Source: a virus
IMG/VR virus record: IMGVR_UViG_3300011980_000002
Coordinates: 1-64,000 of that record
Reading direction: 5' to 3' (one strand)
Length of the DNA stretch: 64,000 bases
How positions within the stretch are numbered: the stretch's first letter is position 1; each line of letters begins with the position of its first letter. Below are positions 35,396 to 39,078 of this stretch, piece by piece. The notes beneath the pieces are model-generated. The model worked only from the letters and a program-made list of their open reading frames with translations. It had not been told where the DNA came from and ran no database searches. The position numbers and the translations under genes were made by a program.

Positions 35396-36139
35396 ATGAG
35401 AGTTGATGTTTTTGATATAATAAATACTCACGCAAGTCTAGTGAGTAAAGATGAGATTTGTAAACTAATGGAAGATATATGGTCAGAAATGGATTACTTC
35501 GAAGTAGATTCATTTTTACCAATATTATTTAAGAGACTTTTTAGCATGGAACGCTTCGATCCAATTGCTATGGAAATATCATCAAATAGCTGCAATATTA
35601 GTATTCGTATTGATGGTTATCCAGGTTGTATGGTTGATTTCGATTATACACTTAGTAGATATTCGGATGGGTTCATTATACAATTAACATCTGTTGATGA
35701 TATACTATTCTTCAACTCCAAAGGATTTCCATTGATATATAGATTGAAAATAGGTGATATGATTAAAAAGAATAGAACTGAGGAATTTACTAAGCTTGAA
35801 TATTTACATTTAGTAGGCAAAGTCAGTCCCGAAGACTACAATACAATTGGAGATATGTTTAAATCTATACCGTCTACAGCTATGATAAATCCTTACAAAA
35901 TTTTTAATATATTAACAAATTACTATTCTAGGTATGCGAGGAGTGAAACAACAGTATATCTAGGCAATGCAGATATTGGTAAATACATACTAGATATCGT
36001 TATTAAAGATCATGATCTTATCCTCAAATATGGGATTTCTCAATCATACGAAGATAATTCGTGTTATGCGAAACTTATTAGTACCGACTATGAGAATTTA
36101 AATTTTCCAATAATATATGATTTTGGTATAAAACTCTAA
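35396..36139 (+). CDS. Two-domain array protein, member 1 (N-type plus C-type ~115-aa domains)
   Basis: Consensus leader TTTAAAGGAGAAAATAAATATG. The N-terminus, MRVDVFDIIN...LMEDIWSEM..FEVDSFLPILFKRLF, is related to 38338. The domains end in FPLIYRLKIGD and FPIIYDFGIKL. Confidence 0.65.
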   Translation: MRVDVFDIINTHASLVSKDEICKLMEDIWSEMDYFEVDSFLPILFKRLFSMERFDPIAMEISSNSCNISIRIDGYPGCMVDFDYTLSRYSDGFIIQLTSVDDILFFNSKGFPLIYRLKIGDMIKKNRTEEFTKLEYLHLVGKVSPEDYNTIGDMFKSIPSTAMINPYKIFNILTNYYSRYARSETTVYLGNADIGKYILDIVIKDHDLILKYGISQSYEDNSCYAKLISTDYENLNFPIIYDFGIKL

Positions 36140-36148
36140 AAAAAAAAC

Positions 36149-36186
36149 ACTACCAGATAGTGCTTTATATAATATTATCTGGTAGT
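36149..36186 (+). terminator. Hairpin terminator
   Basis: actaccagata / tatctggtagt. Confidence 0.5.
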
Positions 36187-36222
36187 AATAAAAATATTAG
36201 TTAATTCAAAGGAGAAAGAAAT

Positions 36223-36579
36223 ATGGAAATAAAGAAGTCTAACAATAAAATTTTATCATTGCAATTATTTGGCAATGTTTTATTAAGAGATTACGAGTAC
36301 ATAGAAGAAGTATTTGGTAAAATAGAATCTGATCGTTTACAAGATAGTATATTTGAAGCAATGTATACGGTATATAGGGGACGTCCAATATTGACAGTAA
36401 ATCGATATCAAAATGCACAAAATTGTATATATGTGAGTATCGGTAATGTTACAATCGACTATTATACAGAGTTTGATCGTTCGACTAATATATTAACAAT
36501 AAAAGCAGGTTCTATTGAAGGTGCTGATGCTAATAGATATCTGATAATTAGATCATTATCTGTAAAAATAAATAATTAA
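36223..36579 (+). CDS. Array protein, member 2 (single C-type domain only)
   Basis: ILSLQLFGNVLLRDYEYIEEVF ... YLIIRSLSVKINN. Confidence 0.65.
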   Translation: MEIKKSNNKILSLQLFGNVLLRDYEYIEEVFGKIESDRLQDSIFEAMYTVYRGRPILTVNRYQNAQNCIYVSIGNVTIDYYTEFDRSTNILTIKAGSIEGADANRYLIIRSLSVKINN

Positions 36580-36600
36580 ATTTTAAAGGAGAAAATAAAT

Positions 36601-37311
36601 ATGAGAGTTGAAACTGAAATACTTTACAAACCTGATGGAAAAACTATAAAAGTTATAACTGAAGATTATGTAAAATATTTAATAGATGAATCTTCTCGTA
36701 AGTATAATTGTACTGATGAGTCATTTATAATGTGTTCATTGTTTAATGATACTGGAGACATAGACCATTTTGAAAAGAGCAGTAATGGTACTCTTGTGAT
36801 ATTTTATAAAAGTAATTGTAGTGTAAACTATTATTACAGCTTTAAAGATAATCTTATAGATTTAAGATTGTGCAATATATCTAACTTTCAGTATTTTGTA
36901 GATAATGGTATATTAATATATGAAAAAATATTAATATCGAGAATCAATGATAAAATAAAGAAGTTTGACAATGAAATTTTATCATTACAATTATTTGGTA
37001 ATGTATCATTGGAAGATTATAGATGTATAGGAAATGCATTTAGTGAAATGGTATATAGCCCAATACATCCGTTTGATAAATTAATTGAGGTGATGTATGA
37101 CATATCTCCGAAATGTGAACCTTTACGTATTAAGCATGATTTTGAACCATTTGATACTTTGTATGTAGAAATTGGAGATACTGAAATTGAGTATTGTTCA
37201 GAATTTGACACGAATACTAATATATTAAAAATAAGGCTAGTTTCTATTGATAATTTTAATGATAATAAATATCCGATAATTAAAGAATTATCTGTAAAAA
37301 TATATAATTAA
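36601..37311 (+). CDS. Two-domain array protein, member 3
   Basis: ILSLQLFGNVSLEDYRCIGNAF ... YPIIKELSVKIYN. Confidence 0.65.
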   Translation: MRVETEILYKPDGKTIKVITEDYVKYLIDESSRKYNCTDESFIMCSLFNDTGDIDHFEKSSNGTLVIFYKSNCSVNYYYSFKDNLIDLRLCNISNFQYFVDNGILIYEKILISRINDKIKKFDNEILSLQLFGNVSLEDYRCIGNAFSEMVYSPIHPFDKLIEVMYDISPKCEPLRIKHDFEPFDTLYVEIGDTEIEYCSEFDTNTNILKIRLVSIDNFNDNKYPIIKELSVKIYN

Positions 37312-37401
37312 GTTTATTGGGGTATATTATCATGACAGAAATAAATGATATTGATAAGTGCTGTATTAAATAAAAATTATAACTTATCCGTATTATTTCA
37401 T

Positions 37402-37430
37402 TATATATATACTATTTATGTGTAAATAAA
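37402..37430 (+). promoter_or_regulatory. Class-1 promoter-like motif with an upstream ATCCGTAT box
   Basis: atccgtat (37386) is followed by tatatatatactatttatgtgtaaataaa. The same two-part layout occurs at 39982/40001 and 50827/50851. Confidence 0.5.
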
Positions 37431-37460
37431 AAAATATATCAATTCAAAGGAGAAAGAAAT

Positions 37461-38216
37461 ATGAGAATTAAGAAATTGGAGTTAGTAAATAACAGTAAAT
37501 ATGAAGGAGCTTTAAATGTAATATAAACCATGAATGAGCATATTGAAGAGTTTAATCCTGTTGAGTATATAAATAGACTCTTTAGGAAACTCCTTGTATT
37601 TAATGATAATTACGAGGATGTAAAAACTTGTGTAGATATGAACAAAGGTATTGTTACAATAAAGTGTGATTATGAAAGAGTCGTCATTGTATATAATATT
37701 AAAGTTAAATACGGTGACCTAGAATTATCTCTAAAATCTGTTAATGATTTTGAATATTTTGCAAATAGAAGTCTTTCAGTAATTCATAAACTTATTATAA
37801 CAGATTTACCGGAAGGTATTGAAGATGAGGATCGTGAATTATATAATCATGAAATATCCAATATGATACTTATCGGAAATGTAATGTCTAGGCATTATGA
37901 AATTATCAGAAATAAATTCTTATCAATTAAACCTGATAAAGATTTAGATGTTTATAAAGTGGTTAATAGGTTATATGACCATTATGACAACTATAGAAAT
38001 GCCTCAGTTACCATAACTGAGACAGCTATAGATCAATTTAAATATAATGTAACTATAACTATGGGAAGTGGCTATCAGAAGCTTGAGTATATAATCTCAT
38101 TAAATCAGAAAGATAATACTATAAGTATTAAGCTTATTGAGGATGAAGATGATGAGATAGAAGCTAATTACCCAGTGATAGCTGCTGTTGATATTAAACT
38201 CAATAAAGAAAGGTAA
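37461..38216 (+). pseudogene. Two-domain array protein, member 4, interrupted by an in-frame TAA at 37524..37526 (long ORF resumes at ATG 37530)
   Basis: The consensus leader CAAAGGAGAAAGAAATATG drives the 21-codon ORF MRIKKLELVNNSKYEGALNVI, which aligns with the N-termini of 35396 and 38338. It is in frame with 37530..38216, whose ATG has no SD. Confidence 0.55.
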
Positions 38217-38221
38217 TAAAA

Positions 38222-38268
38222 AATACCAGTTGATACTTATTATAGTTATTGACTGGTATTTTTTTTTT
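38222..38268 (+). terminator. Hairpin plus T10 terminator
   Basis: aataccagt / actggtatt, followed by tttttttt. Confidence 0.65.
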
Positions 38269-38337
38269 ATAGTTATGAACATCATCTATATAATATTAAT
38301 TTGTAATAAATAATTAATTTTAAAGGAGAAAAGAAAT

Positions 38338-39078
38338 ATGAAAATTGATAATTTAAAGTTGATAAATGATAACAGAAGCAAATTATCTGGAGAAGAACTT
38401 CGCGAATTAATATATAATATATGGGTTGGCATGGAACGAGATTTCGATATAGATTCATTTGTATCAAGATTATTCGAGAGACTTTTTGATATAGTGTGTT
38501 CTGATGCACTGAATGTAGATATATCTGTAAAAGGTTCTAATATACATATTAATATCAATAGAGGTGTTATTCGTATGAGTTATCTTATTATTAGATATTT
38601 TGATAGTTTTAAGATTACCATAGCTTCTGTTGATGATGTTCCATTTATAAATAGTTGGGAATTTCCATTGATATATGAGTTGAGTTTGAGTGATTTTGTT
38701 AAAAAGAACAATTCCAAAGAATCTCATAATGAAATTATATCATTACAATTATTTGGTAATGTATTATTTAGAGATTACGAGTACATAGAAGAGTTATTCC
38801 GTGAAATTGATTATGGACCAAATTTTTCATATGCTATCAAACTACGTCAACCAATATATACTATATATGCAAAATACTCACCTTTATTATATGTAGATTA
38901 TCAACGTGGTACAACTAATAGATTATGTGTGAAATTTGGAGATGTCGAGATTATTTATTATATAGAATTTGACACGTCTAATATTGTATTAAAAATAACA
39001 CCATTTTCCGTCAAAGGTATTACAGATAATTATCCGATAATTAAAGAATTATCTGTAAAAATAAATAAGAATAACTAA
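38338..39078 (+). CDS. Two-domain array protein, member 5
   Basis: MKIDNLKLIN...LIYNIWVGM..FDIDSFVSRLFERLF; FPLIYELSLSD; IISLQLFGNVLFRDYEYIEELF ... YPIIKELSVKINKNN. Confidence 0.65.
   Translation: MKIDNLKLINDNRSKLSGEELRELIYNIWVGMERDFDIDSFVSRLFERLFDIVCSDALNVDISVKGSNIHININRGVIRMSYLIIRYFDSFKITIASVDDVPFINSWEFPLIYELSLSDFVKKNNSKESHNEIISLQLFGNVLFRDYEYIEELFREIDYGPNFSYAIKLRQPIYTIYAKYSPLLYVDYQRGTTNRLCVKFGDVEIIYYIEFDTSNIVLKITPFSVKGITDNYPIIKELSVKINKNN

Follow-up and report, generated by a model that had tools for sequence, protein, structure and literature searches.

A tandem array of paralogous genes

The window analysed here comprises the first 64,000 nucleotides of the IMG/VR virus record IMGVR_UViG_3300011980_000002 and belongs to an uncultured jumbo phage of ~210 kb and 26% GC, which encodes multisubunit RNA polymerases and, judged by RNA polymerase beta, has its closest cultured relatives in PBS1 and AR9 (31% identity). 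Between its Dda-like helicase gene and a replication-recombination block encoding an O/DnaD-like winged helix-turn-helix (wHTH) protein and a UvsX-like recombinase, five open reading frames (ORFs), here named g1 to g5, follow one another on the plus strand at positions 35396-39078, all of them present as originally predicted; an SbcC-like protein, a DnaB-like helicase and RNA polymerase subunits are also encoded in the surroundings. Plastic tandem paralog families are already known in large phages; what is new here is the protein family, its apparently unmatched fold and its early-type promoter organisation.

Four of the genes encode two-domain proteins, namely g1 (35396-36139, 247 aa; N domain ~35396-35770, C domain ~35771-36136), g3 (36601-37311, 236 aa), g4 (37461-38216, 251 codons) and g5 (38338-39078, 246 aa; N domain ~38338-38712, C domain ~38713-39075), and the remaining one, g2 (36223-36579, 118 aa), a single C-type domain, a division that had been anticipated and is borne out. 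In an all-against-all BLASTP comparison, the paralogy of the five is well past chance level, with E-values from 1e-31 to 1e-6: g1 and g5 are 33% identical (E 1e-31), g2 matches the C-halves of g5 (46%, E 3e-27) and g3 (42%, E 1e-25), and g4 shows 21-25% identity to the other members (E 1e-10 to 1e-16).

The array had been read as about nine copies of a ~115-aa domain, and this count is correct. Profiles of the N and C halves align to each other collinearly over 88 columns (hhalign local E 1.1e-5, probability 82%), and the AlphaFold2 models show the same order of elements in both halves (b1-a1-a2-b2-b3-b4-b5-(short a)-b6), so that the halves are distantly homologous and the domain copies number nine. 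The motif proposed to end each unit is found in the C-terminal strand at all nine domain ends, in a degenerate form that lacks the proline in the N domains of g3 and g4 and in g2; likewise, the ILSLQLFGNV box proposed to open the C-type domain is exact or near-exact in g2 (36250-36279), g3 (36976-37005) and g5 (38734-38763), and degenerate in g1 and g4.

Each N domain is nearer to the other N domains than to any C domain, with N-domain groups g2'/g3 (66%) and g1/g5 (40%) and a C-domain group g2/g3/g5 (42-48%), which argues for one ancient internal duplication followed by duplication of the whole two-domain gene. Expansion of the family by gene duplication, as first proposed, thus holds, but not the iterative duplication of domains, as the single N/C duplication predates the gene duplications. 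The ancestor is one two-domain gene, born by internal duplication of a ~115-120-aa alpha+beta domain (b1-a1-a2-b2-b6); duplicated as a whole, this gene gave rise to at least six diverged paralog types (g1 to g6). With identities of 20-48%, the paralogs are old rather than the product of recent amplification.

Within this history, g2 of the window is an N-terminally truncated two-domain gene: in the related contig L013, g2 has a 233-aa two-domain form, whose N-half resembles that of g3 and whose C-half is 84% identical to g2 of the relative L004 and 94% to that of the window. The single-domain form is itself conserved in several genomes, at 81-88% identity.

A second irregularity concerns g4, in which an in-frame TAA (37524-37526) interrupts the frame 37461-38216, so that it reads MRIKKLELVNNSKYEGALNVI, a stop and then TMNEH, and reopens at ATG 37530 (228 aa). 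The leader and the upstream promoter motif precede ATG 37461, not 37530, and all relatives have GAA (Glu22) at this codon and encode a 251-aa g4. The TAA is thus either a nonsense allele or a base-call or sequencing error; in the former case, translation could possibly re-initiate at ATG 37530, 3 nt past the stop. We rejected stop-codon recoding, given that this is a single site, that the relatives all carry GAA and that TAA ends the neighbouring genes normally.

The near-identical leaders noted ahead of the array genes are real, TTTAAAGGAGAAAATAAATATG being exact ahead of g1 (leader and Shine-Dalgarno (SD) site at 35377-35395) and g3 and differing by one mismatch ahead of g5, with TTCAAAGGAGAAAGAAATATG ahead of g2, but they are not specific to the array. 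They belong to a genome-wide class of promoter and ribosome-binding site: TTTAAAGGAGAAAATAAATATG recurs exactly at 28273 (ORF 28292) and with 2-3 mismatches at 14829 (ORF 14848) and 57755 (ORF 57774), and the combined module stands before at least seven other genes of the window. As it precedes unrelated genes too, we rejected the leader as a mark of the duplication unit. In an alignment of the upstream regions, a longer motif, TATATAATATTW-N4-GTAA, emerges 50 to 57 nt ahead of the ATGs of g1, g2, g4 (ATG 37461) and g5, one that also precedes ORFs 28292, 14848, 50915, 51343, 51729, 57774 and 58841 and the PhuZ-like gene at 53286; 19 sites are observed in the window, against 5.1 expected from shuffles.

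In the array, this motif appears as TATATAATATTAAGATGTAA at 35344-35363, 52 nt before the g1 ATG, as TATATAATATTATCTGGTAG at 36166-36185 ahead of g2, with one mismatch at 37406-37425, 55 nt before ATG 37461 of g4, and as TATATAATATTAATTTGTAA at 38287-38306, 51 nt before g5, all on the plus strand. All related loci keep it ahead of their leading array gene, irrespective of the paralog in that place; the TATATAATATTAAGATGTAA site is conserved in this position in L004, L013, L010 and L011, and the TATATAATATTAATTTGTAA site upstream of g5 is shared with L001, L004 and L013. Stable plus-strand hairpins follow the helicase gene, g1 and g4. The first, a perfect 20-21-bp hairpin just 3' of the Dda-like helicase gene (35203-35248; free energy (dG) -26.3 kcal/mol, z -10.6), marks the upstream boundary of the variable locus; the second has a 14-bp stem (36149-36186; dG -17.1, z -6.4), whose 3' arm overlaps the g2 promoter motif; and the third resembles an intrinsic terminator, with a T10 run behind it (38218-38264; dG -19.5, z -6.8). 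Starting 21 nt after g2 and with no promoter motif of its own, g3 is probably co-transcribed with g2, and the likely transcription units are g1, g2-g3, g4 and g5.

In AR9, the virion RNA polymerase reads an early promoter of the form AAATATATATTAT-N6-G, and the late promoter is AACA-N6-TA/G (PMC5312081). Motifs matching this late consensus also exist in the window, where AAAAACA-N6-TA sites (1537, 4909, 17269 (minus), 17320 and 33921 (minus)) lie 35-65 nt before five genes, including those at 1572, 4973 and 17387, and among which are a predicted virion structural gene (16181-17230, minus strand) and a 1647-aa RNA polymerase gene (28936-33879, minus strand). No such late-like site is found within the array. 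By analogy with AR9, we infer that the array genes belong to an early class.

Several other loci of the window carry the same early-type motif. The ORF at 28292-28711 (139 aa, isoelectric point (pI) 4.2, net charge -20) has promoter and leader exactly as g1, is unrelated to the array family and shows only a weak PHROG match. Three consecutive small ORFs at 50915-52007 (95, 92 and 92 aa) each have a motif of their own (50851, 51295 and 51676), with no mutual similarity by BLASTP. A further tandem paralog array at 57774-62135 consists of five plus-strand ORFs (84, 198, 323, 358 and 401 aa), 29-56% identical to one another and matching PHROGs 5070/7964 (unknown function), with motifs ahead of 57774 and 58841. 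Identical 20-mers, TATATTATATTACTCGGTAA, occur inverted at 54-73 (plus) and 3279-3298 (minus), 3.2 kb apart; they resemble the promoter motif with one mismatch and may be a pair of divergent promoters or bound an inverted segment. The PhuZ-like tubulin homolog (53286-54416; phrog_4733, E 1e-12), which has a motif upstream at 53191, and the multisubunit RNA polymerase genes (28936-33879, minus strand, and 42585-44891) point to a phiKZ/AR9-style intracellular organisation. A scan of the window for tRNAs returned none.

Structure and distribution of the family

The array proteins are predicted to be compact one- or two-domain alpha+beta proteins, and they are modelled confidently: the AlphaFold2 model of g5 has a mean predicted local distance difference test (pLDDT) score of 82.7 and a predicted template modelling (pTM) score of 0.54, and that of the single-domain g2 a pLDDT of 87.8 and a pTM of 0.80. 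The two-domain proteins are acidic (pI 4.7-5.2), with a net charge of -5 to -13 per ~246 aa, and g2, with a pI of 6.3, is close to neutral. Inspection by eye, with overall hydropathy as the one computed property, shows no membrane-spanning segment. Invariance is confined to hydrophobic or structural residues (L, G, V, Y, I, F and N, together with a lysine in the last strand), such that the conserved positions form a hydrophobic core and no catalytic constellation.

The original prediction recognised no known fold, and our searches agree, for the fold as for the family. Foldseek returned nothing at E<1e-3 for the two-domain model against PDB and BFVD and for the one-domain model against PDB; its best E-values were 7.8e-3 and 6.2e-2, respectively, with template modelling (TM) scores of at most 0.36. 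The weak top matches (double-hotdog dehydratases, FabZ/PhaJ, PR-10/Bet v 1, fatty-acid-binding proteins and an integron cassette protein) share only the gross order of strand, helix and meander, and on these scores we rejected an assignment to the hotdog or Bet v 1 folds. Pfam, PHROGs and PADLOC scans of the five window proteins, and a Pfam scan of 14 family members, gave scattered, inconsistent sub-threshold matches only, PADLOC defence models gave no match at E up to 1, and the family profile matched no PDB sequence. The PHROG, PDB and BFVD searches bear also on known anti-defence proteins (Acr, Ocr/ArdA-type DNA mimics and others), to which they gave no match; the net charge of the two-domain proteins is only mildly negative.

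The family is very narrowly distributed. An exhaustive HMMER profile search of 1.84 billion representative proteins found nine proteins, word-indexed searches of 5.8 billion clusters added close variants and nothing else, and a scan of IMG/VR with the family profile returned only the already known 210-kb contig. No match was obtained in 50,697 GenBank phages, either by megablast of the region or by tblastn of g5, P0019 and P0021. All members are encoded on contigs of two phage groups, always in tandem arrays. The first group, that of the window, consists of 210-220 kb contigs from metagenome assemblies, some of which we take to stem from oral samples of the Human Microbiome Project. The second (L007, L017, L029 and L032) consists of ~200 kb contigs with 29% GC, and a further protein search with a broadened profile yielded new members of this L007-type clade only.

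In the second clade, four tandem two-domain paralogs of 269-282 aa lie downstream of a DUF6275 gene and are flanked, in the same orientation, by the genes for the major head protein and the head protease. This setting raises the question of whether the family members could be packaged internal head or ejection proteins, put into the prohead and injected with the DNA, and perhaps still counteracting defences afterwards; models for this would be the inner-body and head paralog families of phiKZ/SPN3US-type giant phages or the T4 internal proteins. Giant phages do possess tandem arrays of head paralogs, which vary from 2 to 20 members: in phiKZ and SPN3US, these are family A (PF12699; phiKZ gp93-95, 162 and 163) and family B (SPN3US gp138-154 and others) (PMC5694885). 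The array is, however, not a conserved part of the head module. In L023, L025 and L026, whose major head protein is 63% identical, the genes for the head protein, a 120-aa membrane protein and the protease are contiguous with no family member between them, and the array of the second clade is thus a 3.8-kb insertion into a conserved head module. Moreover, the window-clade genes have early-type promoters and not the late-type motif seen before the predicted virion gene, and the proteins have no N-terminal propeptide: residues 2-9 are confidently modelled as strand b1 of the domain, N-termini are not alike from one paralog to the next, and inspection of the alignment shows no conserved protease motif ((L/I)xE or (S/A/G)xE). 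Homology to the known head paralogs was not found either. The five window proteins and the 14 family members do not match PF12699, even at E up to 5, and when the family, N-domain and C-domain profiles were compared with an alignment of SPN3US gp138-154 and gp160, the hhalign probability did not exceed 0.1% and the best hmmsearch E was 0.06, upon which we rejected homology to family B. We regard a role in the head as the main rival to the reading favoured below, if a doubtful one.

Variation and evolutionary rates at the locus

Between the invariant helicase and wHTH genes, gene content differs in every genome examined. The fullest version, g1-g2-g3-g4-g5-g6, is found in L004; L013 has g1, the two-domain g2, g3, g4 and g5; the window has g1, g2, g3, the interrupted g4, g5 and a scar; L011 has g1, a g2/g5 chimera, orf70 and g6; L010 has g3 and g4; and L001 has g5, g6 and TnpB. 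Relatives thus carry arrays too, rather than a single conserved copy, and their copy number ranges from 2 to 6 among close relatives; some copies have become pseudogenes and others recombinant chimeras. As a locus, the array is thus accessory and hypervariable.

The sixth paralog, g6, encodes 247 aa in the relatives and is in some of them preceded by a 70-codon ORF. Both are lost in the window, where a search of all other ORFs with the family hidden Markov model found no sixth intact member. What is left is a scar at 39108-39239 on the plus strand that reads MDDEKERIKKYFEDIV, a stop, DTRYSEKFKEACNNDQMISNIEIEKE and a second stop, in which the start of the 70-codon ORF (with TGG changed to TAG at 39156-39158) is joined at the microhomology GATGATAT to the end of g6, of which the last 8 codons (SNIEIEKE and the stop) remain. 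The gene has thus been deleted from the window, and it was lost or disrupted by three different routes in the window, in L013 and in L005/L006.

Copies have also been re-joined. P0015 (g2 start and g5 C domain) and P0004 (g3 N domain and g5 C domain) are joined within the NEILSLQLFGNV box, and P0003 (g1 N domain and g5 C domain) just upstream of it, in the linker; among g2, g3 and g5, the DNA of this inter-domain box is 85-88% identical, against ~67% for the remainder of the domain. The P0015 chimera was found on an 82-kb contig and in a second sample. Between the window and L004, the domains within a single gene are far apart in synonymous divergence (dS), at 0.59 in the N and 0.08 in the C domain of g3 and 0 in the N and 0.10 in the C domain of g5, which shows allelic or paralogous exchange at domain boundaries. 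Copies at this locus are hence removed and re-joined by homologous and microhomology recombination.

The rapid divergence first suspected from the sequences is confirmed by Nei-Gojobori estimates between orthologs, made gene-wise and domain-wise with 3-4 orthologs per type. For the six paralog types, the median ratios of non-synonymous to synonymous divergence (dN/dS) are 0.25-0.53 (dN about 0.05-0.12, dS 0.15-0.37), against 0.00-0.02 for the Dda-like helicase, wHTH and UvsX-like genes (dN 0.001-0.005, dS 0.27-0.54), so that array genes change 15-50 times faster than their partner genes at similar dS, about 0.25. The same contrast holds in the second clade, where pairwise dN/dS is 0.15-0.46 in the array genes and 0.00-0.09 in four flanking genes. 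The arms race that had been suggested did not find such support. As no gene or domain has a dN/dS robustly above 1, the data do not establish positive selection, and we dropped the hypothesis; the few comparisons that reach values near or above 1 contain at most 18 non-synonymous and 3 synonymous differences.

Two further observations concern genes that flank the array. The 109-aa ORF at 39639-39968, directly downstream of the wHTH gene, evolves fast (dN/dS ~0.34), unlike its neighbours; it is 71-90% identical among the relatives and has no family match. The Dda-like helicase is called as two ORFs (92 and 283 aa) in L004 (5712-6868), by a frameshift or an assembly error, and is intact and nearly invariant elsewhere.

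With g4 carrying a nonsense allele, g2 truncated and g6 deleted in a single window, the paralogs could be functionless duplicates decaying neutrally. We consider this very improbable: dN/dS is consistently below 1 (0.15-0.53) and in two clades, the reading frames of orthologs remain open up to a dS of 0.6, several genomes maintain the single-domain form of g2, and the strong promoters and SD sites are conserved. That dN/dS is below 1 and the ORFs are intact across diverged genomes argues for functional proteins, and the family is therefore both functional and fast-evolving.

The rates bear equally on the possibility that the proteins are accessory replication, recombination or transcription factors, for example adaptor or regulatory subunits binding phage DNA or the helicase, recombinase or RNA polymerase proteins encoded nearby, whose paralogs would have sub-functionalised and not be directed at the host. 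Embedded among helicase, recombinase and RNA polymerase genes, and of early-type expression by promoter motif, like the PhuZ-like gene, the window-clade array is well placed for such a role. Tight partners should co-vary, however, and the putative partners are nearly invariant; members are freely lost, with phages keeping any two of the six types; the neighbourhood of the L007 array is completely different; and neither Pfam nor Foldseek found a nucleic-acid-binding family or fold. This makes the explanation unlikely.

A further possibility, competition between phages or mobile elements with a target other than the host, whether by superinfection exclusion or by defence against homing or TnpB-type elements, comes into view through the elements that the surroundings of the locus draw. 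TnpB/IS605 OrfB-like ORFs (413-415 aa) follow directly after g6-type genes in L001 (11613-12860) and L008 (1073-2314); in the window, an HNH endonuclease ORF (46618-47430) seems to split the terminase gene; and early expression with rapid evolution would suit exclusion genes equally well. All of this is circumstantial, and neither a membrane segment nor the nuclease/ATPase signature of known exclusion systems is apparent, which leaves competition a long shot. Regarding these elements themselves, the wHTH gene downstream of TnpB in L001 is shortened to 94 aa, and the large terminase subunit seems to be divided into an N-terminal part at 45669-46625 and a C-terminal part at 47605-48891, suggesting an intron or homing-element insertion.

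Possible function and comparison with known systems

The reading that we tentatively favour, at somewhat less than even chances, is that the array products are early-expressed, soluble, non-enzymatic binding proteins directed against host factors or defences. The gain, loss and reshuffling of copies between close relatives, and an evolution far faster than that of the neighbouring genes, suggest a part in interaction with the host. With their own strong promoter-plus-SD module, similar to the early one of AR9, g1, g2, g4 and g5 would be expressed immediately after infection. The array products, soluble, mildly acidic and conserved in the hydrophobic core, would act as non-enzymatic binding modules, with the surface offered to a host factor differing from paralog to paralog and from domain to domain. 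The target would most plausibly be a host defence component or another takeover target; a set of several diverged copies would extend coverage to more host variants, and recombination would prune this set and sort it anew.

Several points weigh against this. Neither experiment nor homology ties the family to defence or to a host target, and dN/dS is nowhere robustly above 1, in any gene or domain; relaxed constraint with recombination explains the data equally well. The assignment to an early class is made by analogy, and the spacing to the conserved G differs from that in AR9. In L007, L029 and L032, the array lies between the genes for the major head protein and the head protease, at a stable four copies, and we found neither of the window promoter motifs when we looked for them in the L007 array, so that a virion role fits that clade at least as well. 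Of the chimeras, P0003 and P0004 come from contigs of at most 1.3 kb and may be assembly artefacts at the repeated box. A more elaborate version, in which the proteins share an unseen alpha+beta fold and recombination uses the conserved inter-domain box (ILSLQLFGNV with its DNA) as a joint, re-assorting N and C domains into combinatorial, immediate-early, two-headed inhibitors of variable host defences, strikes us as improbable.

Lineage-specific paralog families without an assigned function abound in giant phages, and among them this one is unusually tractable: its members are small and confidently modelled, and it occupies one locus with conserved flanks, natural variants of 2-6 copies and one well-supported domain chimera. 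If its members are early host-directed inhibitors, human-mouth phages would become a new place to look for proteins of counter-defence or takeover, and the array would exemplify how paralog recombination re-sorts binding domains. Whether or not this is so, the family is of moderate practical value for as long as neither a host nor a cultured relative is at hand.

Among known systems, the head paralogs of phiKZ and SPN3US come close in several respects. They, too, are tandem, diverged paralogs (~18-50 kDa) of unknown function in giant phages with multisubunit RNA polymerases, and their numbers vary strongly between related phages (2-7 and 2-20), as those of the array do. They differ in being proven virion proteins, some with cleaved propeptides, whereas the window genes have early-type promoters and no propeptide. 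Should the array proteins turn out to be virion proteins after all, a third protein family, unrelated to the other two, would join the plastic head paralog families.

The internal proteins IPI-III of T4 are likewise encoded at hyperplastic loci and are small, fast-evolving and dispensable, and at least one of them, IPI*, counters a host restriction system. As in the array, their gene complement differs among close relatives. They share an N-terminal capsid-targeting sequence ending in (L/I)xE, though, of which none is visible in the array, and there is no homology between the two; the T4 internal proteins and their capsid-targeting sequence are mentioned together in PMC5694885.

In its promoters, the array resembles the early class of AR9, where an extended AT-rich element followed by a conserved G precedes many small genes of unknown function, and where a separate AACA-N6-TA late motif stands before virion genes (PMC5312081). 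The element of the window is TATATAATATTW-N4-G, that of AR9 AAATATATATTAT-N6-G.

In their fold, the domains recall the hotdog and the Bet v 1/START (helix-grip) proteins, which also combine a strand, one or more helices and an antiparallel meander sheet; double-hotdog polyketide synthase dehydratases top the list for the two-domain model, and FabZ, PhaJ and PR-10 recur for the one-domain model. These matches are non-significant, and the array proteins have neither the catalytic His/Asp motif nor the C-terminal grip helix.

Large eukaryotic DNA viruses, finally, maintain tandem multigene families for host range and immune evasion, the so-called 'genomic accordions'. These belong to another virus realm and involve unrelated proteins, and the array differs further in that its paralogs are old; what the two have in common is a change in copy number by recombination between tandem paralogs, together with a raised rate of protein evolution.

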